64,000 nucleotides of DNA, taken from NCBI GenBank assembly GCA_000995185.1, contig LCET01000001.1:103028-167027 (forward strand). Reading direction: 5' to 3'. Positions 12,709 through 64,000 of the stretch are shown in pieces (the stretch's first letter is position 1; the number at the start of each line of letters is the position of its first letter). The translations under genes and the position numbers were made by a program. The notes under the pieces are model-generated. The model was given only the letters and a program-made list of their open reading frames with translations. It was not told the DNA's origin and did no database searches. Source of the DNA: Candidatus Woesebacteria bacterium GW2011_GWC1_42_9 (lineage in GTDB: Bacteria; Patescibacteriota; Microgenomatia; UBA8517).

Positions 12709-12732
12709 TGTGTATAATCGACATGCAAAAAT

Positions 12733-40409: not shown

Positions 40410-40410
40410 T

Positions 40411-47693: not shown

Positions 47694-47696
47694 GCT

Positions 47697-48468: not shown

Positions 48469-48527
48469 TTGACACACGCGTGAAAATAGATCAAAATGGT
48501 GAGAATTGGTGAGAAATGGTGAAAAAT
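48469..48527 (+). promoter_or_regulatory. Candidate mraZ promoter (TTGACA 48469 and CAAAAT 48492) followed by three direct MraZ-box-like repeats at 10-bp phasing.
   Basis: TGGTGAGAAT 48498, TGGTGAGAAA 48508, TGGTGAAAAA 48518. The last repeat overlaps the mraZ ATG (48526). MraZ is known to bind a tandem series of GTG-containing repeats at 10-bp periodicity in its own promoter. Confidence 0.6.
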
Positions 48528-48969
48528 GATGCTAGGAACTTTTTCTTCAAACTTAACTTCTCAAAGGCGAGTTGCCGTCCCCATAAAATTTCGGAAAGAA
48601 CTTGGAAAAACATTTATCGTTGCCAGATGGTATGAAAACTGTCTAGTTGTGGTTTCAAAGGCCAATTGGCAGGAACTTTTAAATAAATTAACAGGCAGAT
48701 CAAAGATCTTAACTTCCCCGGTGAGGGATACCGACCGATTTATATTGGGAAGTGCGTATGATCTGATCACAGATTCCCAAGGAAGAGTGGTTTTACCCGA
48801 AAGCTTGGTTAAATTCGCAAAACTGAGGACAGAAGTAGTGTTTGTAGGACTGGGCGACAGAGTTGAAGTGTGGGATAAAGCAGAATGGTCAAGAAGAGAA
48901 GAATACTTTACCAGAAATGCGAGCGAGATGATTGAGAAGCTGGCGGAAGATGAGAAAGGATCGCAATAA
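48526..48969 (+). CDS. mraZ: Transcriptional regulator MraZ.
   Basis: Two half-domains, each with the DxxxR-type motif. MLGTFSSNLTSQRRVAVPIKFRKEL and ITDSQGRVVLPESLVKFAKL. Confidence 0.85.
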   Translation: MMLGTFSSNLTSQRRVAVPIKFRKELGKTFIVARWYENCLVVVSKANWQELLNKLTGRSKILTSPVRDTDRFILGSAYDLITDSQGRVVLPESLVKFAKLRTEVVFVGLGDRVEVWDKAEWSRREEYFTRNASEMIEKLAEDEKGSQ

Positions 48970-49867
48970 TTTTGATCGGCTCCATAAGCCGGTGATGGTC
49001 CATGAAGTGGTTGATTTTCTTGTTAATAAATCCTCGAATTCAGAGGATAAATATATCGATGCAACCCTAGGGGCCGCGGGACACAGCTTGGCTTTGGCTA
49101 ATTATGAAGGAAAAGTCTTGGGAATAGACCAAGACAAAAGAATGTTGGAAATTGCCCGAAAAAATATAGCCTGCCCTTCCCCGCAGCTGCGGGGATCTGC
49201 CAAGCTCGTCCACGGCAACTTTAGAGATATTGATAGGATCGCGGGGGAGAATGGATTTGCCCGCGTTAGGGGAATAGTGTTTGATCTTGGAATATCAAGT
49301 TTCCACTATCAAAGCGGGCAGGGATTTTCGTTCCAAGAGGGGAATAATCCTTTGGACATGAGGCTTGATCCTGAAAGCCAGAGCGTTAGGGGAAGTGATC
49401 TATTAAATTCGCTTCGTACTGATCAACTGGAAACAATGTTTGAGGAAGCGCTCACCAAGGGAGAATCGAAAAGATTGGTGAAGAAAATAATTAGATTTAG
49501 AGAGCGCACGCCAATTAAGACGGTTAACGATTTTTTGAGTGTAATCAGGCAAGGTGTGATTAAAAAAGGGAAAACTGATCCGGCAACCAGACCGTTTTTG
49601 GCTCTGAGGATGGCGGTTAATAGTGAAGTGGACAGTTTGCAAACGGCTCTGCCGAAAGCCGAGGGACTACTAATTTCTGGCGGAAGGTTAGCCATAATTA
49701 GTTTTCATTCGGGAGAGGATAGGATAGTAAAAGAATATTTTAAGGAAAGAGTGCGCGGGGGATACGGGAGGCTTGTTACCGCAAAGCCGGTACTTCCCTC
49801 AATTGAGGAGGTCAAAGAAAACCCCAGCTCGCGAAGCGCAAAATTAAGAATTTATGAAAAAATTTAA
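48932..49867 (+). CDS. rsmH: 16S rRNA (cytosine1402-N4)-methyltransferase RsmH (MraW).
   Basis: HKPVMVHEVVDFL...YIDATLGAAGHSLAL. Conserved position after mraZ. The precise start is uncertain (alternative ATG at 48950). Confidence 0.85.
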   Translation: MRSWRKMRKDRNNFDRLHKPVMVHEVVDFLVNKSSNSEDKYIDATLGAAGHSLALANYEGKVLGIDQDKRMLEIARKNIACPSPQLRGSAKLVHGNFRDIDRIAGENGFARVRGIVFDLGISSFHYQSGQGFSFQEGNNPLDMRLDPESQSVRGSDLLNSLRTDQLETMFEEALTKGESKRLVKKIIRFRERTPIKTVNDFLSVIRQGVIKKGKTDPATRPFLALRMAVNSEVDSLQTALPKAEGLLISGGRLAIISFHSGEDRIVKEYFKERVRGGYGRLVTAKPVLPSIEEVKENPSSRSAKLRIYEKI

Positions 49868-50135
49868 CAAAATAAAAATTGCCCTTATGCTAGGTGGAGT
49901 TCTCATGCTGATAAATGTCTTGGTGACTGCTTTTCTAAGTGCAAAAAGTACGGCTTACTTGAATATTGAGAGCGAGATCAAGGCGATAAATGATCGCAAC
50001 AGGGAGATATCAGAAAACTTGATAAGTGAAACCGCTTTAGTAAATATCCAGATGAGGGCAGAAGGACTAAAGATGGCAAAGCCCCACGACATCATCTATT
50101 TGTCAAAGAAATCTCCGATAGCGAAATTGCCGTAA
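49854..50135 (+). CDS. ftsL: Cell division protein FtsL-like (single-pass membrane protein with a coiled coil).
   Basis: 93 aa. One TM helix (IALMLGGVLMLINVLVTAFL) followed by a helical segment. Located between rsmH and ftsI, as in canonical dcw clusters. Confidence 0.55.
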   Translation: MKKFNKIKIALMLGGVLMLINVLVTAFLSAKSTAYLNIESEIKAINDRNREISENLISETALVNIQMRAEGLKMAKPHDIIYLSKKSPIAKLP

Positions 50136-51848
50136 ATGGAAACTCGTTTGCGAGTGGTTGGATTGTTTTTTATTCTTGCTATGTTTGTACTTCTTGTGAG
50201 ACTTTTTTACTGGCAAATTCTCCGGGGGAAAGTACTATCTGCGCAGGCTCGGGCACAGCATGTTAGTGGAGAAAATATTGATGCTCCGCGCGGAGATATT
50301 TTGGCAAGGGACGGATCGTGGCTTGCCGCAAGCAGTGAAAGCTGGCTGGTTTTTGCATCGTCGGAGGAAATTGATCGCCCGATCCGGGAGATTGCTAATT
50401 TATTGGCACCGTTATTAATTGATGAGGATGATGAAGAGGAAGATTTACTAGGTGTGGCAATGGAAATTGAAGGGCTGCTTAAGGGGAATAACTCACTTTG
50501 GATACCCCTTAAAAAGGGGGTAAACAGTGAAATCAAGAAAAAAATCGAGGAGCTAGCGGTTAATGGGATACATTTTGAGAAGCAAGAGGCGAGGATCTAT
50601 CCGGAAGGGTCGTCAGCGGCTCAGGTGATGGGCTTTGTGGGAAAGGATCAAGATGGTAGTGATCGCGGATATTTTGGCCTCGAGGGATTTTATGATCTGA
50701 CATTGTCAGGAAAGCCTGGATTTGTGGAAAGGGAGTCAAACCCCTTGGGAGTCCCCATCCTTTCTGGGCGCGCCAAGGAAATCACGGCAATTGGCGGGGT
50801 GAGCTTGCACACTCACCTTGACCGCTCTATCCAGCTATTAATTGAAAAAAAGCTCGCGTATGCAATTGAAACATATGGGGCCGTTGCCGGCACGATAATT
50901 GTGATGGATCCAAAGACAGGAGGGATACTTGGGATGGCGTCATCCCCGTCTTATGATCCTGGTAAGTACTATGAATTTGGCGACGAGTATTTTAAAAATC
51001 CTGCGATTAGCGATAGTTTTGAGCCTGGATCAATCTTTAAGCCAATTGTGATGGCATCAGCCCTTGACGCCGGTGAAGTTGAGCCGGATACAAAATGCGA
51101 TATCTGCACTGAGCCATATAAAGTAGACAAATATGTTATTCGCACTTGGAACAATGAGTACCATCCAGATTCAACGATGACTGAAGTACTTCTTCATTCG
51201 GATAATGTGGGGATGGTTTTTGTGGGGCAGAAGCTTGGGATGGATAGAATGTATGATTATTTATCGGCTTTCGGGTTTGGACGGGCGACAGGGATTGATT
51301 TGCAGGGGGAGGTTAGTGCGCCTTTAAGGAAAAAAGATGAGTGGAATATTGTTGATCTTTCAACGGCCTCATTTGGACAAGGAATTGCGGTTACCCCGAT
51401 ACAGATGGTCAAAGCGATGGCAATTATTGCTAATAATGGGGTGGAGATTACTCCGCAAGTTGTCGATAAATTAGAATTTGAAGGGCGGGATGATGATATT
51501 GACCCTGAGATCGGGAAGAGGGTGATTTCGAAAAAATCAGTTGAAAAAATTAAGCAAATGCTCGTGGAAGCGTCGAGCCACGGAGAAGCACAGTGGACGG
51601 CAATAAAAGATTTTAAGATTGCCGGGAAGACGGGGACGGCGCAGATCCCAGTCTCCGGGCATTATGATGAAGAAAAGACAATCGCGAGCTTCATAGGGTT
51701 TGCTCCTGCGGATGAACCTAAATTTGTGATGCTGGTCACTCTCCGCGAGCCTCAAAGTTCGCCTTGGGCCGCAGAAACCGCCGCCCCTTTGTGGTTTAGT
51801 ATTGCCAGCGATCTCTTCCCCTACCTGGGAATCCACCCCGAAAGGTGA
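50136..51848 (+). CDS. ftsI: Class B penicillin-binding protein/peptidoglycan D,D-transpeptidase (FtsI/PBP2-type).
   Basis: N-terminal TM helix and PBP dimerisation region (PRGDILARDGSWLA). Transpeptidase motifs SIFK (SxxK), HSDN (SxN) and KTGT. Confidence 0.85.
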   Translation: METRLRVVGLFFILAMFVLLVRLFYWQILRGKVLSAQARAQHVSGENIDAPRGDILARDGSWLAASSESWLVFASSEEIDRPIREIANLLAPLLIDEDDEEEDLLGVAMEIEGLLKGNNSLWIPLKKGVNSEIKKKIEELAVNGIHFEKQEARIYPEGSSAAQVMGFVGKDQDGSDRGYFGLEGFYDLTLSGKPGFVERESNPLGVPILSGRAKEITAIGGVSLHTHLDRSIQLLIEKKLAYAIETYGAVAGTIIVMDPKTGGILGMASSPSYDPGKYYEFGDEYFKNPAISDSFEPGSIFKPIVMASALDAGEVEPDTKCDICTEPYKVDKYVIRTWNNEYHPDSTMTEVLLHSDNVGMVFVGQKLGMDRMYDYLSAFGFGRATGIDLQGEVSAPLRKKDEWNIVDLSTASFGQGIAVTPIQMVKAMAIIANNGVEITPQVVDKLEFEGRDDDIDPEIGKRVISKKSVEKIKQMLVEASSHGEAQWTAIKDFKIAGKTGTAQIPVSGHYDEEKTIASFIGFAPADEPKFVMLVTLREPQSSPWAAETAAPLWFSIASDLFPYLGIHPER

Positions 51849-51869
51849 AAGAGAATGTTATAATTCGCA

Positions 51870-52787
51870 ATGTCCGTTGAGATTGGTGACAAGGAAACGA
51901 TCAGTGGAGGAATGAGCATTGCCGTTTTCGAGAGGAAATCGTCGAAGTTAAAACCTGAGTGTGAAGATTCGTTTTATGTCGATCAAGATCAAACCGTTTT
52001 TGTTGTTGCGGACGGTATTAGCAGGTTTAGATATCCTTTTAACTATTCTCCTTCTGCAAGAGCGGCACAATCGGCCGCTGTTACAATTGGTAAAGTATTG
52101 GCAGAAAGAGACATGATTAGGCCGCGAGAAGATTTTTTATCTGCCTTTAAAATAGCAAATGATGTAATTCGTGAGCTTAATTTAAAAGAAATAGGATCAG
52201 AGAGATTGCCTTTATGGGAGAGCACCGATTACTATGAGGATGATTTGGCTGGCGCAGTAGCAGCCGTTTGCGTCTTAAGAAACAATTCTTTACATTATGC
52301 ATTTAATGGCGATTGTCAAATAGTGCATTTGCCTTACAAAGGTGAAATCTGGAAAGCCGTTACTCCTGCAACCGATAGGGTGGCACGTTCTAGGTCGGTG
52401 TTCGTGCACCACAAAGAAAATCTACCTGAACCAGAGAGCGGGGATTATGAAGAGGCGTGGAAAAACTACATAAGATTAGTTCATAACGATTATAGAAATA
52501 ATCCCCATGCTGAATTAATGAATTCCACACATGTGACTTATAGTGTATTGAATGGTCAAAGCTCTGCAGTCCATGATATTTATATTAATTCTGGAGAACA
52601 AAAATTGGCGTCTGGGGATATATTTTTACTTTGTTCAGACGGCTTGAATTCATATATAAATGATTTGGGATTTGTATCGATTTTGAAGTCCGGAGAGATC
52701 GATACGTTAAGTACTTATGTTGATAATCACCCCAAGATAGATAAGGAAAACGATGATAAAGTTTGTATTTGTGTGAGATTACCTTAA
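51870..52787 (+). CDS. PP2C-family (PPM) Ser/Thr protein phosphatase inserted in the dcw cluster.
   Basis: EDSFYVDQDQTVFVVADGISR (metal-binding motif 1). GAVAAVCVLRNNSLHYAFNGDCQIVH. GDIFLLCSDGLNSYIND. DDKVCICVRL (C-terminal Asp motif). Confidence 0.65.
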   Translation: MSVEIGDKETISGGMSIAVFERKSSKLKPECEDSFYVDQDQTVFVVADGISRFRYPFNYSPSARAAQSAAVTIGKVLAERDMIRPREDFLSAFKIANDVIRELNLKEIGSERLPLWESTDYYEDDLAGAVAAVCVLRNNSLHYAFNGDCQIVHLPYKGEIWKAVTPATDRVARSRSVFVHHKENLPEPESGDYEEAWKNYIRLVHNDYRNNPHAELMNSTHVTYSVLNGQSSAVHDIYINSGEQKLASGDIFLLCSDGLNSYINDLGFVSILKSGEIDTLSTYVDNHPKIDKENDDKVCICVRLP

Positions 52788-52794
52788 TATAACT

Positions 52795-55533
52795 ATGATT
52801 ATAGATACGCAACTTAAGCGTTTCCCCTTTCAAGTATCGGGGATAGCTGATAACTCTCGTGATGTTAGGAAAGGTTATTTGTTTGTCGCAATTAAAGGGT
52901 TGACCGTGGACGCTCATCAATTTATTCCTGAAGCCGTTAAGAGGGGGGCTACGGTAGTTGTTGGTGAAAAAGATTTTAACGATTTAAATATAAGTCCCAA
53001 AAAAGCTCGGTATATAAAAGTTACGGATTCGAGAAAAGCACTAAGTCTTTTAGCTTCTGCTTGGTACGGAAATCCTGCTAATAAACTAAGACTTATTGGT
53101 GTTACGGGAACTGATGGCAAGACTACCACAGCTTCAATGATATGGTGGATTTTGCAGAAGTCGGGGCTTAAGGTTGGTTTGATTTCTACAGTTTCTGCAA
53201 AAATCGGCAATAAGGAATATGATACAGGCTTCCATGTAACCAACCCTGAGCCACTAGCTCTTCAGAGATTTCTAAAAAAGATGGTGGACAGTGGCTGTGA
53301 ATATGCCGTATTGGAGGTAACTTCTCATGGATTGGATCAAAAACGAGTTTACGGTATTAACTTTGATGTTGGGGTACTGACTAATATAACTCACGAACAT
53401 CTTGATTATCACAAAACTTTTGATGCCTATCGTCGTGCCAAGCTTAAGCTTTTTAAAAATTCGAAAGTGGCAGTATTAAACAAAAATGACAAAAATTCGA
53501 ACTGGGTCAGAAAAAATATAGGCGCAAAAACCATTTTTTATAAACCAGATTTAATGGCAAAGGTTTTTACTGAGACTCATAACCAAGAAAATGCAGCCGC
53601 TGCGATAGCTGTAGCGCGGTATATTAATGTTTCTAAAAAAGAGATTTTATCGGCGCTCAATTGTTTTCCAGGTGTTGAAGGAAGAATGCAAGAGGTCAAA
53701 AATAACAAAGGAATAAAAATAATTATTGATTTTGCCCACACTCCAAATTCACTTAAGTGTGTACTAATAAATCTACGAAAATCTTCGAAAGGAAAATTGA
53801 TATCTGTTTTTGGATGTGCAGGAGAGAGAGATAGTGCGAAAAGGAAGATCATGGGTGGTCTTTCTGCTTCAATTGCTGATTTATCGATATTCACAGCAGA
53901 GGATCCGAGGAGTGAAAAAATCAAGGATATTTTGTTAGAGATGGAAAAGGGAGTACTTAGGAAAAATATCGACAAATATCTTTCTTTCCCCGAAAGAGGA
54001 GATGCAATATATTATGCAATTAACTCTGTCGCCAAAAAAGGAGACACTGTAATTATCTGTGGTAAAGGTCATGAAAAGAGTATGTCTTATTATGGTGTTG
54101 AGTATCCATGGTCAGACAAAGTTGCTGTTTTATCTGCCTTGGAAGGTAAGTCGAAAAGAATCCCCTGGAGAGAGAATATCTATAAAGGGAAAAATGTTGC
54201 TATTTTAGGGCTTGGTTTAGAAGGGAAAGATCTGGCTAATTATCTTGTCAAGATTGGTGCCAACGTGACAATAAGAGATCAAAAGCCAGAAAACGAATTA
54301 GATCTTTCTAAAATACCAAGTGAAAAGATACGATTTATGTGTGGTTCGAAGTATTTGGTCGGCTTAAACCAACATGAATTTATATTTCGTTCTCCAGGCA
54401 TTTATAGGTATAAAAAAGAGTTGGTTTATGCAGAAAAGAAGGGAGTGGTGATATCGAGTGCCATAAAACTATTTTTTGATTTTTGTTCAGCCAGGATTAT
54501 TGGAGTTACAGGTACGAAAGGGAAAGGTACAACTTCTACTTTAGTCTATCAAATTATTAAAAATAGTGGGAAAGATGTTTATCTCGCAGGTAATATAGGT
54601 AGACCATGCTTAAACTTGTTAAGTGAGTTAAGAGCCGATAGTTGGGTAGTATTAGAGCTTTCTTCTTTTCAATTAATAGATTTGGAGAAAAGTCCGCACA
54701 TTTCAGTAGTTCTGAATATAACTTCTGATCATATGGATTGGCATAAAAATCTGAGAGAATACAGAGAATCAAAGAAGAACATAGTCAAATACCAGACGAG
54801 CAAGGACTATTCGGTTATAAATGCTGACTATCATTCTTCGAAGGTATTTTCGCAAAATACCTTTGCAAAACTTTATTACTTTAGCAGAAATAAAAAAGTT
54901 TGTGGAGCATATGTGACTGGAGATTCTATTTATCTTAATTTTGGTGAGAAAATATTAATCGGAAATATAAAAAAATTATTATTGAGAGGGAAACACAATT
55001 TGGAAAACATAACTGCTGCGATTTGTGCCGCATATTTATCAGAAGCAGAAGTTCAGGAAATCAAAAATACAATATTTGAATTTAAAGGACTAGAGCATAG
55101 ACTAGAGTTAGTAAGAAAAATTAAAGGAGTATCATTTTATAACGATTCGTTTTCTACTAATCCCCAAACTACAGTTGCTGCAGTCGATTCATTTAAAGAA
55201 TCACTCACTCTAATTCTCGGGGGCTATAATAAGGGATTGGATTATGGAACATTAATAAAAAAAATTTCTAAAGCTAAGAATCTGAAAAATATTATTTTGA
55301 TTGGAGATTTGTCAACCGATTTAAATAAATTGTTATTAAAAAGTAATTTTAAAGGCAAAATAATTGAATTAAAAAGAGCCTCAATGAGAAAGATAATTAG
55401 AAATTGTTTTAAAATAACAGATCCCGGTGGAGTAGTTTTGCTTTCGCCTGCAGCAGCCTCATTTGATATGTTCAAAGACTATAAAGATAGAGGAGAGAAG
55501 TTTAAATCGACAGTAAGTAAATTTAACTTTTAA
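52795..55533 (+). CDS. murE-murD: In-frame MurE-MurD fusion. The N-terminal half is UDP-MurNAc-L-Ala-D-Glu:diamino-acid ligase. The C-terminal half is UDP-MurNAc-L-Ala:D-Glu ligase.
   Basis: First half: DNSRDVRKGYLFVAIKG..DAHQFI, IGVTGTDGKTTT, DFAHTPNSL, ICGKGHE. Second half from about residue 460: KNVAILGLGLEGKDLANYLVKIGANVTIRD, IGVTGTKGKGTT, LAGNIGRPCL, VVLELSSFQL, GKHNLENITAA, FKGLEHRLE, FYNDSFSTNPQT, LLSPAAASFDMFKDYKDRGEKF. There is no stop between the halves. Confidence 0.8.
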   Translation: MIIDTQLKRFPFQVSGIADNSRDVRKGYLFVAIKGLTVDAHQFIPEAVKRGATVVVGEKDFNDLNISPKKARYIKVTDSRKALSLLASAWYGNPANKLRLIGVTGTDGKTTTASMIWWILQKSGLKVGLISTVSAKIGNKEYDTGFHVTNPEPLALQRFLKKMVDSGCEYAVLEVTSHGLDQKRVYGINFDVGVLTNITHEHLDYHKTFDAYRRAKLKLFKNSKVAVLNKNDKNSNWVRKNIGAKTIFYKPDLMAKVFTETHNQENAAAAIAVARYINVSKKEILSALNCFPGVEGRMQEVKNNKGIKIIIDFAHTPNSLKCVLINLRKSSKGKLISVFGCAGERDSAKRKIMGGLSASIADLSIFTAEDPRSEKIKDILLEMEKGVLRKNIDKYLSFPERGDAIYYAINSVAKKGDTVIICGKGHEKSMSYYGVEYPWSDKVAVLSALEGKSKRIPWRENIYKGKNVAILGLGLEGKDLANYLVKIGANVTIRDQKPENELDLSKIPSEKIRFMCGSKYLVGLNQHEFIFRSPGIYRYKKELVYAEKKGVVISSAIKLFFDFCSARIIGVTGTKGKGTTSTLVYQIIKNSGKDVYLAGNIGRPCLNLLSELRADSWVVLELSSFQLIDLEKSPHISVVLNITSDHMDWHKNLREYRESKKNIVKYQTSKDYSVINADYHSSKVFSQNTFAKLYYFSRNKKVCGAYVTGDSIYLNFGEKILIGNIKKLLLRGKHNLENITAAICAAYLSEAEVQEIKNTIFEFKGLEHRLELVRKIKGVSFYNDSFSTNPQTTVAAVDSFKESLTLILGGYNKGLDYGTLIKKISKAKNLKNIILIGDLSTDLNKLLLKSNFKGKIIELKRASMRKIIRNCFKITDPGGVVLLSPAAASFDMFKDYKDRGEKFKSTVSKFNF

Positions 55534-56163
55534 ATGGTCTTACTAGAAAATGAAAGTAGGTATAATCACGAATCTGAAAGGCTTGATGGAGAATTAAGCC
55601 TTGTATTTATACGAGGATTACCAGGCTCTGGCAAAACGACAGTCGCGAGTGAAATGGTTAGATTAATAGGAATTAATGGAGTTGAATTGATAGATCCAGA
55701 TATTATTGATAAAGATTCTGAAGATTATTCCGAATTTGTACGAAAATTGTCTCAAGCACAGCCTGAATTAGATCCTAAATTTTTTCTATATAGGTATATG
55801 CTTTTTCGAGCCAGATGTGCTCTGCTGGAAGGGAGGTCGGTAATATGGGATCAACCTTTCAGCCTCTTAAGTGGATTGAAGCATGCAATCGTTACAACGG
55901 AATCTTATTTTCAAAATTTGTCGGAAATACAAGTAATTATAGTCGATCTTGATATTGATCCCGAAGAGTCTTATAAGAGAGTGCAAGATAGAATTAGCAA
56001 GGGTGGTCATGGGCCAGACAGATTGACTTTTGATTCTTTCGTTTCTAAATATCAACCTGCCGAGTGTTTAGGTAGAAATCATATTTCTCTTTCTGGCATG
56101 GGATCTCCAATTGAAAATGCAGAAAGAGTTTTTGAAATGATTAAATGTCAGAAGAAAGATTGA
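55534..56163 (+). CDS. P-loop NTPase/kinase (AAA_33-like), function unknown.
   Basis: Walker A GLPGSGKTT. Probable Walker B VIIVDLD. Confidence 0.55.
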   Translation: MVLLENESRYNHESERLDGELSLVFIRGLPGSGKTTVASEMVRLIGINGVELIDPDIIDKDSEDYSEFVRKLSQAQPELDPKFFLYRYMLFRARCALLEGRSVIWDQPFSLLSGLKHAIVTTESYFQNLSEIQVIIVDLDIDPEESYKRVQDRISKGGHGPDRLTFDSFVSKYQPAECLGRNHISLSGMGSPIENAERVFEMIKCQKKD

Positions 56164-56783: not shown

Positions 56784-57859
56784 TGTATTTGATGGAATTC
56801 CAAGGTATTATCCCCAAAGCATGTGACTAAAAAACTGGAGTTACTGACTCGACATAGCCCAGTTGGCTCTTTCCCTGTGTACTGAGATCTCCCTTGCACT
56901 TTTTCTTTGTCTATGTCAACAAGATAGACACATGAGGAGCCTCTACATGAAACAATAATCTCGTTATTTCCTAGAAAGTCTATAGAATTTGGAGATTTCC
57001 CAACAGCTATTTTTTTAGTGTTTTTCAGGGTATCCGTGGAATACTGAAGGAGCAAGTTCCTGCCTAAATTAGAAACATACGCATACTCTCCTCTTTCATC
57101 AATGATTATATGTCTCATATTTCCGGAATACCTGGGTTTTTCGAACGGCTCTGTTGTTGTAATGTTAAACCATTCATCTGAGTATTTTTTGAATACGCCT
57201 AGATTTCCAGAATAAAATCCAGTCACAATAGCGCTATTACCATCTGGTGCAAAAGCTATTCCTCTGGGGGCCTCTCCCCACTCAAGGGTTTGTTTTAATT
57301 TGGGAGCAAAGGAGTCAGATGTATCAATTACACTGATGTTGTGGCTATGCCAGTTTGAAATCATAATTTCATTATGTATTGGGTTGACTGCTATCAACTT
57401 ACTCCAATTACCTCCTGTATTCAGAGATGAGAGAATTGAGAGGTTCTCTGCGTTAATAATCCATAATTGATTTCTTGTTTTTCTTGGCGGTCGTTCAAAA
57501 TTCGTAGTAGTTGCATATAGTAAGCCACCATCTATAGCTACCTCAACACATTGATCTTCAAAATTTACTTCATCGGCAAAATGTAATTTCCTATTATCAT
57601 GGGAAAACTTTTGAAGACTTCGCCCTGACATGCATGATACATATGCATTTCGTTTGCTTGGGTCGTATACAACTTGTTTAGGTTGGGGCCTTGTTTCTAT
57701 ACCGTCTAATTTTTCTCCTGTTTCAACAACTCTCTCTGGTGGTAAAAAAATTTTTGATTCGGGTGGAGGACTAATTGTTGTTCTCCAGTATCGTTTTATG
57801 TGTTTTGGAAGATTTTTGAAATCCAAAATTTCTGGAACATATCTGCCTACCTCCTTCAT
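56780..57859 (-). CDS. YVTN-family beta-propeller repeat protein.
   Basis: Repeated blade motifs: NAYVSCMSG, LLYATT, PRGIAFAPDGNSAIVT, YAYVSNLGRNLL, SPNSIDF. Confidence 0.6.
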   Translation of the reverse strand: MKEVGRYVPEILDFKNLPKHIKRYWRTTISPPPESKIFLPPERVVETGEKLDGIETRPQPKQVVYDPSKRNAYVSCMSGRSLQKFSHDNRKLHFADEVNFEDQCVEVAIDGGLLYATTTNFERPPRKTRNQLWIINAENLSILSSLNTGGNWSKLIAVNPIHNEIMISNWHSHNISVIDTSDSFAPKLKQTLEWGEAPRGIAFAPDGNSAIVTGFYSGNLGVFKKYSDEWFNITTTEPFEKPRYSGNMRHIIIDERGEYAYVSNLGRNLLLQYSTDTLKNTKKIAVGKSPNSIDFLGNNEIIVSCRGSSCVYLVDIDKEKVQGRSQYTGKEPTGLCRVSNSSFLVTCFGDNTLEFHQIH

Positions 57860-57910
57860 GTTTCGTTATTTATTTTGTTATACCTCTCCAGTGTTTAGCT
57901 CGTAGAATTT

Positions 57911-58138
57911 CTAAGGCTTGTCAATTAATACTTGAAAACTTTGATGGATCAACTCACGAGCTTTGTTGAAATCTGAGTTTTGGAGATGAGTATTACCGTC
58001 GTGATAAAGCCTGATTGCTTTTTGTACTTGCTCAGGACACTTAGCTAATAAGTCTGGTCTCTCGTATATTAAAATTCTAGTGAGAATAGTCCCTCCTGCT
58101 TTTGGCAATTCAGGGGTATTTGGAATTTCAGCTGACAT
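57911..58138 (-). CDS. Small hypothetical protein (75 aa), co-oriented with the propeller gene.
   Basis: ORF only. Confidence 0.25.
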   Translation of the reverse strand: MSAEIPNTPELPKAGGTILTRILIYERPDLLAKCPEQVQKAIRLYHDGNTHLQNSDFNKARELIHQSFQVLIDKP

Positions 58139-58218
58139 TTGAATTGATGTAGTATAACATATGGTTTGTGATTGTATAACACTCGCGCAATAGTGAAAAT
58201 TGATATTTAGTATCAGGT

Positions 58219-59364
58219 ATGGCTGTGAATAAAAAGAAAAATAAAGTGGCGGTCATGTTTGGAGGAGTATCTCCCGAACATGAGGTGTCGGTAATAACTG
58301 GTCTTCAGGTTGTCGAGAATATTGATAGAAAAGTTTTTACTCCATATGCCATATTATTAAATAAGCAGGGTATTTTCGAATATTATAAGGGCCTTAAAAA
58401 TAGACGAGGGTACGTTAAAATTAAGCCCAACGCTGTTAATTTTGGCAGGGATAAGAAAGGCAGCTTTTTTCAGACAACTGGTTTATTGAAGGAAAAGATT
58501 TATATAGATGCGGCTTATTTGGCATTTCATGGCGGCAATGGGGAATCTGGCCAACTTCAGGGATTTTTAGAAACATTAGACATACCCTATACATCTCCAA
58601 ATGTCGAGTCTTCTGTGATCACAATGAATAAAGTAATTACTAAGCAAATTTTGTCGTCAAATGGAATTTCAACAGTTGAAGGAGTTAGTGTTAGGGATGA
58701 AGATATAAAAAAGAATGTTGATGAAGTTATTAAAAACACCAAAATAAAATTACCAGCAATAATTAAACCGGCGCATCTTGGATCAAGTATTGGCATAAAT
58801 ATTGCAAAAACGAAGGTGGAGCTGAAAAAATATTTATTGGAGGCATCCCATATTGACCCGGAGATATTAATCGAAAAATTGATTAGTAATTTCGAGGAAT
58901 ATAATATTTCAGTAAGAAGGATAAAAGGGAAAATCGGAGCTAGTGAAGTTGAAAGACCAATTTCTAAGGATCAGATTTTGTCGTTTACTGATAAGTATCA
59001 AAGAGGCGGCAAAAAAAGTGGAGGCATGGCCAGCCTGAGTCGTGAACTTCCGGCAAAAATCGATAAGATTCTTGAAGAAAAATTAAAAAAATTAGCGGTT
59101 GAAGTATTTAGGTTAATTAGAGCGAAAGGCATGATAAGGATAGATTTTATGGTTTCGGCAGACAAGATCTATGTTACAGAAGTAAACCCAATCCCTGGGT
59201 CCATGAGCTACTACCTTTGGGAAGCGAGTGGAGTGAGTTTTAGGGAACAAATCACAGATCTTATTGATCAAGCGATTGCTGATTTTTCCGAAAAACAGTC
59301 AAAGAGGGTAGATTATAGATCAGATATTGTAGAAAAATTTATTACTCATAATATAGATCATTAA
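58219..59364 (+). CDS. ddl: D-alanine--D-alanine ligase (ATP-grasp).
   Basis: KVAVMFGGVSPEHEVSVITGLQV (Dala_Dala_lig_N). ATP-grasp body. C-terminal IRIDFMVSADKIYVTEVNPIPG. Confidence 0.85.
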   Translation: MAVNKKKNKVAVMFGGVSPEHEVSVITGLQVVENIDRKVFTPYAILLNKQGIFEYYKGLKNRRGYVKIKPNAVNFGRDKKGSFFQTTGLLKEKIYIDAAYLAFHGGNGESGQLQGFLETLDIPYTSPNVESSVITMNKVITKQILSSNGISTVEGVSVRDEDIKKNVDEVIKNTKIKLPAIIKPAHLGSSIGINIAKTKVELKKYLLEASHIDPEILIEKLISNFEEYNISVRRIKGKIGASEVERPISKDQILSFTDKYQRGGKKSGGMASLSRELPAKIDKILEEKLKKLAVEVFRLIRAKGMIRIDFMVSADKIYVTEVNPIPGSMSYYLWEASGVSFREQITDLIDQAIADFSEKQSKRVDYRSDIVEKFITHNIDH

Positions 59365-60514
59365 GTTCTGGTTGAAGTAGGATTAGATATTTTTTGGGGT
59401 CATATTCTTCCAAGATTTTCCAGGCATCATTCAGATTATTTGCCAATATAAACTTATTCGAATTATTTATCACTTCAGTATATAAAATCGACTTTAGTAA
59501 AATAATTTTGTGAACTTTTTTTACTAAATATTTTCCAAGTTTTTTGTTGGCATATTTGTTTTCTTCTCCTAGTTCAGGGATGCCGGCGGTGATGACTATT
59601 AGTCCCTTTTTGTCTAGTTTTGCTAATTTAACTGCATTGTCAACCCCATATTTGGCTGTATCCCCACTAATATTGTAGCTTTGATCAATAACTTTAAATT
59701 TATTGATAATTTTGACATCGCCCCTTCTGTCCGGCTTTTTCAACTTTGTGATTGTATCTTTGATAATGTCATTCGGGATATTTAGTATTTTAGCTACTTT
59801 TAGTGCATAGGCTAAATTAGTTTTTTTATCACAGATTTTAATTGCATTTGGTTTTGCGTAATCAAAAATTTCAAGTAAGGCTTTTTTTAAGTTTGATTTT
59901 GAGCCGAGTCTCTCTAAGTGTTGGTCGCCGACATTGGTTAGTAGTGCAATATCCGGAGGAGTAATTCTAAGACTCCTTTTAATTTCTCCAACGAAATATG
60001 TATCAACCTCTACAATTAATAGTTCGCTTGAATGGTCGAAATTATTTAGTAGCCAATTAGCAATACCCGTGGGAGTATTAATATTGCCGGGGATAATTTG
60101 AGTTTTATAATTATATCTAACAAACTCGTAAATATAATTTTTGACCGTGGTTTTGCCATATGAACCGGCGATGGCAATTACTTTTGTATTTTTGCCGTAC
60201 TTATTAAAGTGGATTGCGGCGTTTTTTTGAATATTTAATTTAATCCGCTCAAAATAAGGTGTTAAAACAGAATTTGATAACCATATCCAAAGTGGTGTGA
60301 AAGGCGGCATGGTTATACAAAAGGGCAGTGCTAGTGCCAAAGTAATATTTATTCTTTTTGTATAGACTAATTTACCCCTTTTTTGGATATTCCTCCTCCA
60401 CCAAAAACGCTTTATTGTATTAAAGTATCTCTTAGATTCATACTCTTCAAGTTGAAGAAGGTACAAAAAATCAGCTATCGGATAGATTGTTGATAAAATT
60501 TTTGACATAGCCAA
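59342..60514 (-). CDS. murF: Mur ligase family protein, MurF-like (UDP-MurNAc-tripeptide:D-Ala-D-Ala ligase). It has an atypical N-terminus carrying a hydrophobic segment.
   Basis: VIAIAGSYGKTTVKNYI, PGNINTPTGIANWLL (parallels MurF GNLNNEIGVP), LLTNVGDQHLERLGS, DQSYNISGDTAKYG (parallels DDSYNAN), IVITAGIPELGEE. The first ~100 aa lack the usual MurF N-terminal domain and contain ITLALALPFCITMPPFTPLWIWL. Confidence 0.6.
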   Translation of the reverse strand: MAMSKILSTIYPIADFLYLLQLEEYESKRYFNTIKRFWWRRNIQKRGKLVYTKRINITLALALPFCITMPPFTPLWIWLSNSVLTPYFERIKLNIQKNAAIHFNKYGKNTKVIAIAGSYGKTTVKNYIYEFVRYNYKTQIIPGNINTPTGIANWLLNNFDHSSELLIVEVDTYFVGEIKRSLRITPPDIALLTNVGDQHLERLGSKSNLKKALLEIFDYAKPNAIKICDKKTNLAYALKVAKILNIPNDIIKDTITKLKKPDRRGDVKIINKFKVIDQSYNISGDTAKYGVDNAVKLAKLDKKGLIVITAGIPELGEENKYANKKLGKYLVKKVHKIILLKSILYTEVINNSNKFILANNLNDAWKILEEYDPKKYLILLQPELNDLYYE

Positions 60515-61154
60515 AAAATAGATCTGACTTATCTAAAAAAACGTTGTGGCCAGCGTTTTCTATGATTTTCAGTTGAGAATTTGGGATTAGTTTTTCCATT
60601 TCATACGCGATATGCAGTGGGACTTGATCATCATTTTCTCCCCAGATCAAGAGAGTGGGTATTATTATTTTTTTTAGACTTGTTGATTGGTCGTAAGTAA
60701 TGATATTTCTGAAAATTTTCTCAAGCTTTCCCGCCCTTTTTAGATCTTCCGAGTAAAATAATACTTTAATACCCTTTGGCATAAATACTTTTAATAATTT
60801 ATATATTTTTATTTTTGCCTTTACTAATGTTGATGGTCTATAGAGACAAGGCGCGCCGGTTAATACGAGTCCTTTTAAAAGTTTTGGATTTTTACTAGCC
60901 ACTTCAGCCGCGATTCTGCCTCCAAACGAATGCCCAATTAGAACAGTGTCTTTTTTTTTGTCAATTCGCCGTATGACCCAATCGGCATATTCCGGAATTC
61001 CCCAGTCATCTTTGACAAGAGGTTCGTCCCCAAACCCAGGCAAATCTAATGCTTTTGCATTTTTACCAAACTTAGTTGCTAAGTTTTTCCAAAGCTCTCT
61101 ATTGTGTCCCCACCCGTGCAAAATAATTATTTTCATCTTGCCATATTTTACCAT
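60471..61154 (-). CDS. Alpha/beta-hydrolase fold protein.
   Basis: IIILHGWGHN (oxyanion-hole region). LIGHSFGG (GxSxG nucleophile elbow). ENAGHNVFLD (catalytic His). Confidence 0.65.
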   Translation of the reverse strand: MVKYGKMKIIILHGWGHNRELWKNLATKFGKNAKALDLPGFGDEPLVKDDWGIPEYADWVIRRIDKKKDTVLIGHSFGGRIAAEVASKNPKLLKGLVLTGAPCLYRPSTLVKAKIKIYKLLKVFMPKGIKVLFYSEDLKRAGKLEKIFRNIITYDQSTSLKKIIIPTLLIWGENDDQVPLHIAYEMEKLIPNSQLKIIENAGHNVFLDKSDLFFGYVKNFINNLSDS

Positions 61155-61187
61155 TGCCCATGAGATGTCGTATAATTTACGAGCAAC

Positions 61188-62252
61188 ATGGGCGCAACTA
61201 ACATTCTTCCACTCTCACTTGGGATAATTATTTTTTCCTTTCTAGTTACGAGTATCTTAGTCGTGCCGTTTATTGATTTTCTCTACAAGCTAAAGCTCAC
61301 TAGAAGGAAGGAAGGAGAGGTTAGGGGGATTAAAAAATCGCTTTTTGATAAGCTCCATGATAAAAAAGCCGGTACTCCAATCGGCGGAGGGATCTTGGTT
61401 ATTGCGGTCGTGGTGATACTTTTTGCACTGCTTGTCCCACTGATAAGTAGGCTCGGGGTGAAAATTGAGGCTTCGTACCCACCTAGAAAAGAATTGATAT
61501 TAATATTTTTTACTTTCATTATGTTTGGTGTTTTAGGGTTTCTTGATGACTACACAAAGATATTTGGAAGACCCAGACCGGGTGCACTGGGTGCTGCGTT
61601 TGGATTGAGTAAGAGAACTAAATTTGGCCTGCAGTGGGTGCTTGGGTTTATCGTTGGCTTTCTTCTTTATAGCTGGATGGGTATAAGCATCCTACACGTC
61701 CCCTTAATAGATGTGTCGGTAGATATTGGGGCTGCATACGTACCTTTTGCCGCATTTATTGTTGTGTTTTTTGCGAATGCTTTCAACTTCACGGATGGAT
61801 TGGATGGTCTGGCGAGTGGACTACTCATTATTTACCTTCTCACCTATATGATCATGATCGTGACGATTGGTAATCAAGACACGCTTCTTTACGTATTTAC
61901 TTCGCTTTGGATAGGCGCTTTGGGAGCATTTTTATATTTTAATATTTGGCCTGCAAGGATCTTTTTGGGCGACGCTGGCGCTCTTTCTTTTGGGGCAATG
62001 ATCGCGGTCATAGGATTAATGATAGGTAATGTGGCTACTCTGTTTATAGTTGGAGGGATATTTGTGATCGAGGCGGCAACAAGCGCAATTCAAATATTTG
62101 GGTGGAAGCTTTTGAATAGGCCAATTTTCCCGCTGGCACCAATCCATCATACTTTTCTTACTATTGGCTGGGAGGAGCCAAAGATTGTCATGAGAGCCTG
62201 GATTATCGGGATATTGATGGCAATATTTGGATTATGGTTGGCCGCAATTTAA
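61188..62252 (+). CDS. mraY: Phospho-N-acetylmuramoyl-pentapeptide transferase MraY.
   Basis: NAFNFTDGLDGLASG and ten TM helices. The PNPT family signature is clear. Confidence 0.9.
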   Translation: MGATNILPLSLGIIIFSFLVTSILVVPFIDFLYKLKLTRRKEGEVRGIKKSLFDKLHDKKAGTPIGGGILVIAVVVILFALLVPLISRLGVKIEASYPPRKELILIFFTFIMFGVLGFLDDYTKIFGRPRPGALGAAFGLSKRTKFGLQWVLGFIVGFLLYSWMGISILHVPLIDVSVDIGAAYVPFAAFIVVFFANAFNFTDGLDGLASGLLIIYLLTYMIMIVTIGNQDTLLYVFTSLWIGALGAFLYFNIWPARIFLGDAGALSFGAMIAVIGLMIGNVATLFIVGGIFVIEAATSAIQIFGWKLLNRPIFPLAPIHHTFLTIGWEEPKIVMRAWIIGILMAIFGLWLAAI

Positions 62253-63316
62253 AAAAAAATAGGTCAATTGACCGGGGATTACTGTTTCTAACTTTGGGAT
62301 TAACTGTAGTGGGAGTTGTCGTAGTTGCAGATGTTTCTTCCCCTCAGGCTTTAGAGGTATTTTCGGACAGTTTCTATTTTGCAAAACAGCAGTTAATGTG
62401 GGCCGTGGCTGGAATAGTCCTTCTTTTGATTAGTTCAAAGGTTAATTATAATATTTGGAGGAAGCTTTCCTTGCCGTTATTTGCGATGAGCATGGTGTTA
62501 TTGGTGCTGGTTTTAATACCAGGATTTGGAGCTAAAACACTTGGAGCGCAAAGGTGGCTTATTTTAGGTCCCATAAGGTTCCAGCCTTCAGAGTTAGCTA
62601 AGCTGACACTGGCGATATTTTTCGCTGATAACTTGACGAAAAACCGACCATTTTATTTTTATTTGGGAATTTTGGCGGGAGTATTTGGTTTAATTATGCT
62701 TCAGCCGGACTTAGGGACATCGTTGGTCTTATTGAGTATTGGGATGTCACAGCTTTTTATCTCAGGTATTTCTCTGACTTGGCTAACGGGTACAATATTT
62801 TTGGGCGGGCTAGTCGGGACAGGTTTAGTTTTGCTTTCCCCTTATCGCAAGGAAAGATTGATGACTTTTTTAACGAGCTCTTCTGATCCCCTAGATAGCT
62901 CATATCATATTCGCCAAATTTTAATTGCAATTGGTTCAGGTGGTTTATTTGGAGTGGGGCTGGGACAATCAAGGCAGAAACATTTATTTATTCCAGAGAC
63001 GGCAACGGACTCGGTTTTTGCGGTGTTGGCAGAGGAGATTGGATTTATTGGATCAAGCTTGATAATAATTCTTTTATTTGTCTATATCTTTAAAACAGTC
63101 AAGGTGGCTAAGAATGCCGAGGACGGATTTGCGAAACTGTTAGCAGGAGGGATCTCGGTATGGATGGGGGTACAAATTATTCTTAATCTTTCCTCTATGC
63201 TTGCTCTTACCCCATTAACAGGGATTCCTCTACCTTTTTTTAGTTATGGGGGGTCAAGTTTAGTGATGATTTTATTATCAACGGGAATATTATTAAATAT
63301 AAGTAAACATGGTTAA
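62234..63316 (+). CDS. ftsW: SEDS-family peptidoglycan glycosyltransferase FtsW/RodA.
   Basis: PSELAKLTLAIFFA and PETATDSVFAVLAEEIGFIGSSLIIILLFVYIF (parallels the ..TDFIFAVIGEELGFIG.. consensus). Confidence 0.85.
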   Translation: MVGRNLKKNRSIDRGLLFLTLGLTVVGVVVVADVSSPQALEVFSDSFYFAKQQLMWAVAGIVLLLISSKVNYNIWRKLSLPLFAMSMVLLVLVLIPGFGAKTLGAQRWLILGPIRFQPSELAKLTLAIFFADNLTKNRPFYFYLGILAGVFGLIMLQPDLGTSLVLLSIGMSQLFISGISLTWLTGTIFLGGLVGTGLVLLSPYRKERLMTFLTSSSDPLDSSYHIRQILIAIGSGGLFGVGLGQSRQKHLFIPETATDSVFAVLAEEIGFIGSSLIIILLFVYIFKTVKVAKNAEDGFAKLLAGGISVWMGVQIILNLSSMLALTPLTGIPLPFFSYGGSSLVMILLSTGILLNISKHG

Positions 63317-64000
63317 AAAAGTATTACTGACAGGAGGACATGCGGGCACTACTGCGATTGCAGTCATTCAGGAGCTCGAAGAGAGAAATAAAGAGTGGAA
63401 GATTTACTGGATTGGGGCAAGGCGGGCATCAGAGAGAGGGGACATAACGACGCTTGAGAGCAAGGTCTTTCCTGGTTTGAATGTCCATTACTGCACAATT
63501 TTGGCCGGGAAACTCCATCGAAAATGGAGTATTTACTCCATTATTTCGTTATTTAAAATTCCTTTTGGATTTGTTCATGCATTCTTATTACTTTTAAAGA
63601 TCCGACCGAAAGTTATTTTGTCCTTTGGTGGGTTTGCTGCTTTTCCAGTGGTTTTATGTGCTTGGGTCCTAAGGATCCCGATTATCATTCATGAGCAGAC
63701 ATCAACCGTGGGGTTAGCAAATCAACTATCGAATCATTTCGCAAGCAAAATTGCTGTATCACGAAAATCAAGTACGAAGTACTTTCCCCGTAAAAAGGTG
63801 GTGGTAACAGGGAACCCGGTAATGAAGCAAGTCTTGGATGTTGGGCTAAAAAAGAAAATGGGAAATCCACCGACTATTTATATTACTGGTGGTTCGCGCG
63901 GGGCAAGGGTGATAAATGAGGCGGTGAGACCGATTATAGAGGACTTATTAAAACTATTTGTTGTATATCACCAGACTGGATTAGCTGATTTTGATGAGTT
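63309..64000 (+). CDS. murG: MurG, UDP-GlcNAc:lipid I N-acetylglucosaminyltransferase. It is 3'-truncated by the window end.
   Basis: MVKKVLLTGGHAGTTAIAV... (the G-loop GGTGGH pattern) and PIIIHEQTSTVGLANQLSNHFASKIAV. The frame is open to base 64000. It is absent from the ORF track because no stop falls inside the window. Confidence 0.8.
   Translation, partial: MVKKVLLTGGHAGTTAIAVIQELEERNKEWKIYWIGARRASERGDITTLESKVFPGLNVHYCTILAGKLHRKWSIYSIISLFKIPFGFVHAFLLLLKIRPKVILSFGGFAAFPVVLCAWVLRIPIIIHEQTSTVGLANQLSNHFASKIAVSRKSSTKYFPRKKVVVTGNPVMKQVLDVGLKKKMGNPPTIYITGGSRGARVINEAVRPIIEDLLKLFVVYHQTGLADFDE

Follow-up and report, generated by a model that had tools for sequence, protein, structure and literature searches.

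A kinase–phosphatase–propeller module beside MurD in the derived peptidoglycan-and-division gene cluster of a Woesebacterium

What might a kinase and two phosphatases be doing among the genes for cell-wall synthesis? The question is raised by a 64,000-nucleotide (nt) stretch of the genome of Candidatus Woesebacteria bacterium GW2011_GWC1_42_9 (contig LCET01000001.1, positions 103,028 to 167,027; hereafter the window), which carries a division and cell wall (dcw) cluster with a PP2C-like gene, a P-loop kinase gene and a histidine phosphatase gene set among its mur genes. A preliminary description of this DNA regarded the embedded genes as signalling-type and proposed that phospho-regulation of wall synthesis is wired directly into the cluster. 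The kinase and phosphatase are indeed built into it, and the set to which they belong is conserved in the wall-synthesis clusters of many related genomes. However, protein signalling found no support, the kinase being AAA_33/Zeta-like and the phosphatase CobC/PspA/PhoE-like, and a metabolite-level hypothesis is offered instead. With moderate confidence, we take the region to be a true supercluster for peptidoglycan synthesis and division, belonging to a Woesebacterium and both derived and reduced, in which a module consisting of the P-loop kinase, the histidine phosphatase, a convergently transcribed beta-propeller protein and a small protein would act with MurD on a small-molecule wall precursor. 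Across related candidate-phyla bacteria, the module repeatedly accompanies MurD and wall-synthesis genes, an association that is apparently undescribed. Peptidoglycan synthesis is usually held to be fully known in its cytoplasmic steps; the module offers a concrete candidate, open to experiment, for one more reaction or point of control acting on wall precursors.

Genes were called from a listing of open reading frames (ORFs) together with Pfam and NCBIfam profile searches of the window proteins, and these searches reproduced every gene call behind the order first described. A one-genome-per-species scan with the fused MurE::MurD protein encoded directly upstream of the module yielded 80 loci, mostly from Woesebacteria and Microgenomates. 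All window proteins and reference proteins were mapped onto the related loci, which carry L-numbers below (L004, L097 and so on). The contexts of the module were taken from kinase- and propeller-homologue loci and from L004. Orthologues of the propeller are encoded at 11 distinct loci, namely the window, L004, L088/89, L090/91, L092/93, L094, L095, L096, L097, L098 and L099. The kinase and phosphatase lie next to the propeller in 10 of the 11, mur, mraY, ftsW or murG genes adjoin the module in 10, and murD is directly upstream of the module or fused with it in six. The module follows murE::murD in the window and in L004 and follows murD in L097, while the order is murA-x-murD-module-mraY in L090/91 and murE-x-MurL-MurD2-module-murF-mraY in L096. 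It lies between ftsW and murG, with kinase and phosphatase fused, in L095, and between mraY and murA in L099; the propeller occupies the same interval in L098, without kinase and phosphatase. In L088/89 it comes after a murA remnant of 44 amino acids (aa) and a fragmented murE and is accompanied by a 45%-identical copy of the small protein. In L092/93 it is found within a glycosyltransferase cluster, and in L094 it takes the form of MurD::propeller plus kinase::phosphatase.

Natural fusions tie the same components together. The 855-aa fusion protein of L094 joins a complete MurD (36% identical to the MurD half of the window protein) to a propeller (43% identical over 313 residues, E 2e-79), and relatives of the kinase are fused to His_Phos_1 (three times) and to IMPase-family, HD and alpha/beta hydrolase domains. 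Together, gene order and fusions show kinase, phosphatase and propeller as one predicted functional unit, genetically tied to MurD and MraY.

The Walker A motif of the kinase reads GLPGSGKT. About 20 residues beyond it stands a conserved DPD motif, and the lid has the form RxxxRxxxGGHGP. Its family is small, with 171 cluster representatives at E<=1e-3 among 1.84 billion, and Walker A, the DPD motif, W105/Q107 and the lid arginines are invariant or nearly so. All 84 aligned members match the AAA_33 profile and 70 match Zeta_toxin (E<=1e-3), followed by KTI12 (29), APS_kinase (7) and 6PF2K (1); the window kinase itself scores 19.0 against the Zeta_toxin threshold of 22.3, which some relatives exceed. 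Structural modeling predicted a P-loop fold resembling nucleoside monophosphate kinases (predicted local distance difference test, pLDDT, 91.9), with PSTK, RNA 5'-kinases, APS kinase and gluconokinase as the closest folds. Judged by this model, the protein is a nucleotide/RNA-kinase-like P-loop enzyme and neither a Hanks nor a PASTA kinase. The genes on either side are murE::murD upstream and the histidine phosphatase gene downstream, and no epsilon or PezA antitoxin gene lies beside it.

The phosphatase gene overlaps that of the kinase by 19 nt, and the catalytic RH motif of its product falls at residues 12-13. Its best NCBIfam matches are CobC and PspA, both below cut-offs, and its best PDB match is the phosphoserine phosphatase 4ij5 (E 8e-12). 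Its sequence resembles the small-molecule phosphatases CobC, PspA and PhoE. In public annotations, the protein is called at 188 aa and thereby loses the RH motif; the 212-aa form is conserved in L088 and L097. The propeller gene converges on the phosphatase gene with a 4-nt overlap, and its product has a helical N-terminal region of about 45 aa. Its family comprises 34 tight orthologues at 37-56% identity, separated by a large gap from generic YVTN proteins, and 42 columns of the alignment are invariant. The AlphaFold2 model (pLDDT 94.8) places it closest to Lp49, an archaeal YVTN propeller and WDR5. A lactonase-type enzyme is unsupported, since these neighbors are scaffold-like. The gene for the 75-aa small protein lies 5' of the propeller gene on the minus strand; its product is 45% identical to a 90-aa ORF beside the module in L088 and L089.

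Three further observations concern the surroundings of the module elsewhere. The MurD::propeller gene of L094 and the following gene for a 392-aa kinase::His-phosphatase (4362-8179) are surrounded by a phage-type integrase, helix-turn-helix proteins and a TraG/TrwB-like coupling protein, which may represent a mobile element. A protein of about 247 aa is encoded after murA beside the module in L090 (5877-6620), L098 (12660-13406) and L099 (13902-14642), and the L090 copy shows a weak match to Pol-beta-type nucleotidyltransferases. Finally, a 203-aa HAD-family hydrolase, another phosphatase type, is encoded on the opposite strand within the module-bearing clusters of L096 (17848-18459) and L097 (7684-8295), in L097 between murD and the kinase.

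On the reading that we prefer, the kinase and phosphatase would form a couple that adds a phosphate to, and removes it from, a hydroxyl group of a small molecule. A hydroxyl acceptor is suggested because the conserved aspartate is spaced as in zeta toxins, Pnk and CPT. The most plausible target would be a uridine-nucleotide-linked wall precursor or its nucleotide by-product, because the neighboring MurA, MurD, MraY, MurG and GT2 proteins handle UDP-sugars, the kinase profile overlaps that of the zeta toxins, whose substrate is UDP-GlcNAc, and the phosphatases are of the nucleotide/sugar-phosphate type. The propeller may hold the couple against MurD or bind what MurD produces. In this way, the module would tune or edit the flow of precursors between the Mur ligase steps and MraY, and would carry no protein-phosphorylation signal. 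Several points weigh against this reading. If kinase and phosphatase shared a single site, their cycle would be futile, and some form of regulation or distinct target positions would be needed. The fold matches of the kinase are generic (template-modelling score about 0.6), and the nearest folds of the propeller, being scaffolds and not enzymes, give no chemical clue. Furthermore, the glycosyltransferase cluster around the module in L092/93 lacks mur genes, the propeller of L098 stands without its partners, and the module may be mobile in view of the integrase and TraG-like genes next to it in L094.

The tie to MurD is accompanied in the window by a fusion of MurE and MurD. The continuous ORF comprises a complete MurE (about residues 1-462; TIGR01085) and a complete MurD (about residues 463-912; TIGR01087, profile positions 1-440 of 441). 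Both the murE and the murD NCBIfam models score above their cut-offs, and the Pfam domains run Mur_ligase, M and C, then MurD-like_N, M and C. The C-terminus of MurE is joined straight onto the N-terminus of MurD, as in the homologs of L004 (881 aa) and L005 (901 aa). Because an identical fusion protein occurs on 17 contigs and the junction is shared with L004 and L005, the fusion is not a sequencing frameshift. In L005, it lies beside murB and outside any dcw cluster, so that at least one genome with the fusion has its wall genes dispersed. In L097, murE and murD are adjacent and overlapping but separate genes, and loss of the stop codon in an L097-like ancestor would give the fusion. The DNPR motif marks MurE enzymes of the diaminopimelate type; the window protein has EDPR in its place. 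Several other MurE ORFs of Woesebacteria measure 630-750 aa and may carry extra domains. Further Mur chimeras were also seen in this group (loci L006, L018, L022, L023 and L031), namely MurE::MurC (926 aa, L006 9947-12727) and MurC::MurB (about 730 aa).

The position of the module after murD is held in relatives by murI or a transaminase gene, which had made it attractive to see the module as a supplier of D-glutamate (D-Glu), replacing MurI or the D-amino-acid transaminase or acting like MurL. We rejected this as a general explanation because L096 has MurL, MurD2 and the module together, and because the MurD half of the window protein has the canonical Asp/Lys residues of D-Glu-type enzymes (SDHMD, NKG; signature residues from PMC8788868). 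A MurL gene together with Glu/Arg at the residues of MurD that correspond to D182/K348 of E. coli was not found in the window and was found only in L096 (REH, DRG, MurL). The latter is an observation in its own right. At 12407-15065 on the minus strand, a Woesebacteria-like dcw cluster of L096 encodes MurL (PF26299/PF26298) beside a MurD with the MurD2 signature (REH, DRG, SPSF; Glu/Arg/Pro/Phe), and a 2021 review (PMC8788868) places the L-glutamate/epimerase route only in some Gamma- and Alphaproteobacteria and rare actinobacteria.

How far the cluster departs from its relatives was examined by comparing dcw clusters across the related genomes. The claim that its order differs from the canonical one stands, with murE::murD and then ddl, a minus-strand murF-like gene (MurF') and mraY, and without murC, as against the E. 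coli-type order. As a peculiarity of this genome, the rearrangement mostly dissolves, murD and ddl upstream of mraY being the standard layout in Woesebacteria; the order is real, and most of it is typical of the lineage. The standard cluster begins with a glyS-like aminoacyl-tRNA synthetase gene, a gene for a 242-aa transmembrane (TM) protein, mraZ, rsmH, ftsL, ftsI, murA, (a CofD-family gene and glmS), murE, murC, murB and murD. It closes with one of two variants, followed by mraY, ftsW, murG, ftsA and ftsZ. One variant is murI-ddl-murF and the other (class IV aminotransferase)-hydrolase-MurF'-DegT aminotransferase-FemX. Among 18 module-free Woesebacteria-type loci spanning ftsI to mraY, murA, murE and murD lie in this interval in all 18 and murC in 17. 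The most striking point, missed by the preliminary description, is that murA, murC and murB are absent from the cluster of the window; indeed, no murA, murB, murC, murI or glmS was found in the 64-kb window or in the 10 kb downstream of it. L097 is effectively a full-length version of the window cluster as judged by its gene order, ftsI-murA-x-murC-murB-murE-murD-(HAD)-kinase-phosphatase-<propeller-alr-ddl-<MurF'-<hydrolase-mraY.

If this absence reflects loss, these ultra-small cells, which probably depend on a host, may obtain part of their wall from scavenged precursors, and the module could serve salvage or bypass. It would then re-activate scavenged wall fragments or sugars by way of phosphate, making MurA, MurB and MurC dispensable in an episymbiont living on host wall material. 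MurNAc auxotrophs that rely on salvage by a kinase and a phosphatase are known (AmgK/MurU/MupP), and the distribution of genes is suggestive: murA, murC and murB are absent from four of the five module-bearing Woesebacteria-type clusters (the window, L004, L088/89 and L096), whereas none of the 18 module-free clusters lacks murA. The lack of all five genes from the window and its downstream flank, and the murA remnant and broken murE beside the module in L088/89, point the same way. Nevertheless, L097 combines the module with a complete murA-murC-murB-murE-murD set, murA lies beside the module in L090, L095, L098 and L099, and the module includes no nucleotidyltransferase. The murB gene beside murE::murD in L005 points to relocation and not loss, and the association may reflect shared ancestry. 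Taken together, salvage seems to us an unlikely role. As a rule, the idea that the module necessarily replaces MurA to MurC was rejected, since L097 has both. A related and bolder proposal, which we likewise rate as improbable, is that the module carries out an unrecognised peptidoglycan-precursor step in physical association with MurD, for example phosphorylation-dependent editing or re-activation of UDP-MurNAc-peptides or scavenged muropeptides, and so lets some candidate-phyla bacteria dispense with MurA, MurB and MurC.

The remnant in L088/89 belongs to a wider pattern. L088 (6532-7686 and 10368-11147) and L089 (1034-2525) are two assemblies encoding an identical kinase protein, and in both, all that is left beside the module is murE in fragments and the final 44 codons of murA. 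In L088, murE has in addition an internal deletion, ddl is truncated and the cassette downstream is a different one. In sequence, this wall cluster looks like one undergoing decay and cassette swapping.

Chemistry on RNA or tRNA is a further candidate role that we consider rather unlikely. Here, the module would be an end-healing pair similar to PNKP/HD-Pnk (the latter appears in PMC6097658) or an aminoacyl-tRNA kinase resembling PSTK, either unrelated to the wall or tied to Fem-type additions. The top structural neighbors of the kinase favor such a role, and its architecture of kinase plus phosphatase, including one HD::kinase fusion, fits end-healing enzymes; in addition, FemX-like genes occur in related clusters. 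However, at none of the 11 loci does an RNA ligase, Hen1, Tpt1 or other repair gene lie alongside, Fem-type genes are missing from the window cluster, and the case is weakened further by the recurrent siting among mur and mraY genes and by the fusion of MurD to the propeller of the module.

Protein phospho-signalling is the role first proposed. According to this explanation, the PP2C-like protein, with or without the kinase and histidine phosphatase, would reversibly phosphorylate Mur or division proteins in the manner of Gram-positive PknB/Stp1. The gene is packed between ftsI (21 nt away) and murE::murD (7 nt away), in the position that murA occupies in relatives. In its product, visual inspection and local alignments pick out EDSF, VADGIS, CSDGL and a C-terminal NDD as candidates for the metal-binding Asp motifs of PP2C enzymes (xED, DGxxG, SDG, DN); motif 2 lacks its Gly-Gly. 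The matches to PF13672 (E 6.8e-5) and PF00481 (16.5 bits against 20.3) both lie under the Pfam gathering threshold. NCBIfam gives a local match to Stp1 (E 1.6e-6), and local PDB alignments to bacterial PP2C enzymes extend across ...EDSFYVD...VVADG... and ...GDIFLLCSDGL.... No homologue was found in the 80 related loci, and a word-indexed search of 5.8 billion proteins returned only a fragment of that protein itself. The embedded Ser/Thr phosphatase of the preliminary description therefore stands as a gene with visible motifs in the murA slot and falls as a conserved component: it is an orphan and no conserved part of the system. Of the embedded genes, it alone is a candidate for a protein phosphatase gene. 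In favor of signalling, proteins are known to be substrates of certain histidine phosphatases and of a small number of P-loop kinases, HPr kinase among them. On the other hand, a six-frame translation of the 64-kb window gave no match to the Hanks catalytic loop HRDxKxxN; the cognate Ser/Thr kinase of the PASTA type that the preliminary description suggested looking for elsewhere in the genome was thus not found within the window. The kinase family instead matches small-molecule and RNA kinases, and its fusion partners His_Phos_1, IMPase and HD are phosphatases of the nucleotide/sugar-phosphate type. We consider signalling of this kind very unlikely.

A selfish or toxin-like cassette appears similarly improbable. 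In this scenario, a zeta-like kinase poisons a wall precursor and is held in check by the phosphatase, and the mobile cassette lands in wall clusters and erodes them. Most family members match the Zeta_toxin profile, the position of the module varies among clusters, an integrase and a TraG-like gene accompany it in L094, genes decay beside it in L088/89, and the central block of the window cluster has sharp compositional borders. The GC content at third codon positions (GC3) is 0.39-0.55 from the synthetase gene to ftsI (0.39-0.47 from mraZ to ftsI), 0.25-0.36 from the PP2C-like gene to the hydrolase gene and 0.37-0.42 from mraY onward. In single figures, it is about 0.47 from glyS to ftsI, about 0.31 in the central block (51870-61154) and about 0.40 at mraY, with a step down from 0.46 to 0.33 between ftsI and the PP2C-like gene and a step up from 0.33 to 0.42 between the hydrolase gene and mraY. 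In composition, the variable center thus stands apart from the conserved flanks of the cluster. We draw no conclusion as to recent horizontal transfer of this block, since other parts of the window are as AT-rich and no gene of the block has a relative closer than about 60% identity. Against a toxin, no epsilon or PezA-type antitoxin is present, and the PADLOC defence library gave no match, which also disposes of anti-phage defence. Moreover, the module is kept at 37-56% identity across deep divergence with its catalytic motifs always intact. The best-conserved part of the module is the propeller, whose fusion to a complete MurD speaks for a place within the pathway.

The possibility that the strand switches are chimeric joins, raised by two assemblies that break at the convergence of ddl and MurF' inside 340 bp between 59202 and 59541, is practically negligible, because assemblies from other software cross this interval with identical sequence, the same inversion occurs in L006, L031, L089 and L097, and the murD-kinase-phosphatase-<propeller order recurs in L004, L096 and L097, these layouts being shared at only 35-66% protein identity. 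The window sequence recurs with 0-1 mismatches in a 298-kb ENA MEGAHIT contig, Logan contigs of two runs, Joint Genome Institute (JGI) contigs and an NCBI genome from Rifle groundwater, contigs of up to 708 kb carry the window proteins, and existing contigs span both strand switches. One JGI contig and one Logan contig end at 59202 and another JGI contig begins at 59541, at the overlapping convergent 3' ends of ddl and MurF'. This gap is probably a strain-variation bubble and not a chimeric join, because the contigs on both sides align collinearly with the window and the interval is crossed by other assemblies. Misassembly, which was to have refuted the preliminary description, was thus not borne out: independent assemblies are identical, and distant relatives share both strand switches.

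Further along the cluster lies a second conserved pairing, that of an alpha/beta hydrolase with a MurF homologue. The two genes adjoin in all 13 related genome loci that have the hydrolase (L006, L007-L010, L012, L014, L018, L019, L031, L032, L037 and L046), and also in the window, L088, L089 and L097. The arrangement ddl> <MurF' <hydrolase mraY> is common to L006, L031, L089 and L097, with 27-49% protein identity for MurF' and the hydrolase. Orientation and spacing predict that the hydrolase gene is co-transcribed with MurF', which in turn converges on ddl with a 23-nt overlap. The inverted murF with an altered N-terminus that was first described is confirmed by its strand and by TIGR01143. 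The match lies below the cut-off of 288.6, murF is still the best-scoring family, the best stretch aligns residues 109-233 with profile positions 73-196 of 418, and Pfam matches the middle domain alone. In place of the canonical N-terminal domain, MurF' has an LQLEEY motif and then a moderately hydrophobic stretch; relatives of 457-536 aa have two to five TM helices and a Q(L/V/I)(E/K)EY motif, and the N-terminus of the window protein is shorter. These features suggest a membrane-anchored MurF variant with a dedicated hydrolase. Because it is the sole MurF-like gene of the cluster and faces ddl, as is likewise the case in L006, L031, L089 and L097, MurF' is probably the functional D-Ala-D-Ala-adding enzyme. 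For ddl itself, the NCBIfam D-Ala-D-Ala ligase models score about 230 bits, slightly below cut-offs.

Table 1. Genes of the wall-synthesis and division cluster in the window, with the matches by which they were assigned
Feature	Position in window	Strand	Basis
GlyRS-like class II aminoacyl-tRNA synthetase (420 aa) and 242-aa single-TM protein	46431..48425	+	Pfam tRNA-synt_2b, HGTP_anticodon; 1 predicted TM helix
mraZ	48526-48969	+	Pfam MraZ
rsmH	48932-49867	+	Pfam Methyltransf_5
FtsL-position protein, 93 aa	49854-50135	+	one TM helix; no Pfam match
ftsI (PBP transpeptidase)	50136-51848	+	Pfam PBP_dimer, Transpeptidase
PP2C-like, 305 aa	51870-52787	+	PF13672, 22.9 bits (cut-off 24)
murE::murD, one continuous 912-aa ORF	52795-55533	+	TIGR01085, 524 bits; TIGR01087, 467 bits
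P-loop kinase, 209 aa	55534-56163	+	AAA_33
Histidine phosphatase, 212 aa, branch 1	56145-56783	+	His_Phos_1, 113 bits
Seven-bladed beta-propeller, 359 aa	56780-57859	-	Pfam Lactonase, 39 bits
Small protein, 75 aa	57911-58138	-	no Pfam match; conserved beside module in L088/L089
ddl, 381 aa	58219-59364	+	Pfam Dala_Dala_lig_N, Dala_Dala_lig_C
MurF' (MurF-like), 390 aa	59342-60514	-	TIGR01143 best match, 127 bits
alpha/beta hydrolase, 227 aa	60471-61154	-	Abhydrolase_1, 94 bits
mraY	61188-62252	+	Pfam Glycos_transf_4
ftsW	62234-63316	+	Pfam FTSW_RODA_SPOVE
murG	from 63309, runs past window end (64000)	+	start read from sequence

The outer parts of the cluster are conserved (Table 1). The synthetase gene and the gene for the 242-aa TM protein, which has no Pfam match, lie directly 5' of mraZ here and in nearly all related Woesebacteria loci, and constitute a conserved upstream border or extension of the cluster in this group. 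The genes from mraZ to ftsI (48526..51848) represent the conserved 5' part of the dcw cluster, the FtsL assignment resting solely on position and a single TM helix. The plus-strand genes from mraZ to the phosphatase overlap or are separated by gaps of at most 21 nt, and the kinase gene starts one base past the murE::murD stop. From orientation and spacing, five transcription units are likely: mraZ to the phosphatase, the small protein with the propeller, ddl, the hydrolase with MurF', and mraY onward. Scans for promoters and terminators gave counts equal to chance expectation and were not used as evidence. Conservation of mraY spans 354 aa, compared with 329 aa in public gene calls. Beyond the 3' end of the window, as read from L084, follow a 213-aa FtsQ-position protein, ftsA, ftsZ, ileS, a second FtsW/RodA gene, L21, L27 and parB.

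Elsewhere in the window, positions 1-35200 form a large glycan-synthesis locus encoding a UDP-GlcNAc 2-epimerase, many GT1/GT2/GT4 transferases, three PMT_2/ArnT-like proteins, a Wzy_C-type protein, a flippase, a hexapeptide acyltransferase and a ManC-like nucleotidyltransferase, as well as large proteins of 1009 and 848 aa without a Pfam match. At 39312-41517, an EcoRI-type adenine methyltransferase gene (E 2e-143) is followed by a 368-aa ORF, and the two may be a restriction-modification pair.

The cluster and its module were also set against known systems. The canonical dcw cluster (mraZ-rsmH-ftsL-ftsI-murE-murF-mraY-murD-ftsW-murG-murC-ddl-ftsQAZ) is matched in the 5' end, the mraY-ftsW-murG core and the ftsA-ftsZ 3' end. 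In contrast to it, murD and ddl precede mraY in the window, murF is inverted with a new N-terminus, and murC and murB are absent; relatives of the window also hold murA, murI, glmS and a CofD-family gene in the cluster. The salvage enzymes AmgK, MurU and MupP differ in that the window kinase is a P-loop enzyme and not of the APH fold, and no nucleotidyltransferase is encoded in the cluster. Control by PknB and Stp1 (PASTA kinase and PP2C) likewise involves a PP2C-like gene in a wall-synthesis operon, yet the window has no Hanks/PASTA kinase, and its PP2C-like gene is sub-threshold and unique to this genome. The alternative D-Glu route through MurD2 and MurL (PMC8788868) also places an accessory enzyme gene next to murD; the window differs in its canonical Asp/Lys residues and lack of MurL, and the co-occurrence of the module with MurL in L096 means that one does not replace the other.

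Among enzymes that couple a kinase with a phosphatase, T4 Pnk, PNKP and HD-Pnk share with the window a P-loop kinase coupled to a phosphatase, and one relative is an HD::kinase like HD-Pnk; their repair partners are missing nearby, and the setting is instead one of wall synthesis with a dedicated propeller. PFK-2/FBPase-2 offers a parallel in that three kinase relatives are fused to His_Phos_1 in just this way, although the 6PF2K kinase domain was not found and its profile is touched by only one of the 84 family members. The Zeta/PezT toxins are UDP-GlcNAc 3'-kinases (PMC3062530, PMC5923241), and draining of cell-wall precursors by a gonococcal zeta toxin is stated in the title of PMC5923241. 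The window kinase shares with them a P-loop fold, an aspartate about 20 residues past the Walker lysine and an arginine-rich lid, and is, like them, tied to wall precursors.

The MurE::MurD protein finds its counterparts in the Mur chimeras surveyed by Shirakawa et al. 2023 (PMC10214165), which comprise MurE-MurF, MurC-Ddl, MurC-MurB, MurG-MurC, MurD-FtsW and MraY-MurG. As in the linker-less MurE-MurF of Bordetella, two complete Mur enzymes are joined head to tail without a linker. The order of the fusion reverses that of the reactions, in which MurD acts first, and the pair MurE then MurD is absent from the survey, which excluded unnamed species. MurE::MurD thus adds a fusion type missing from the published survey and bears on the view that Mur ligases work as a complex.

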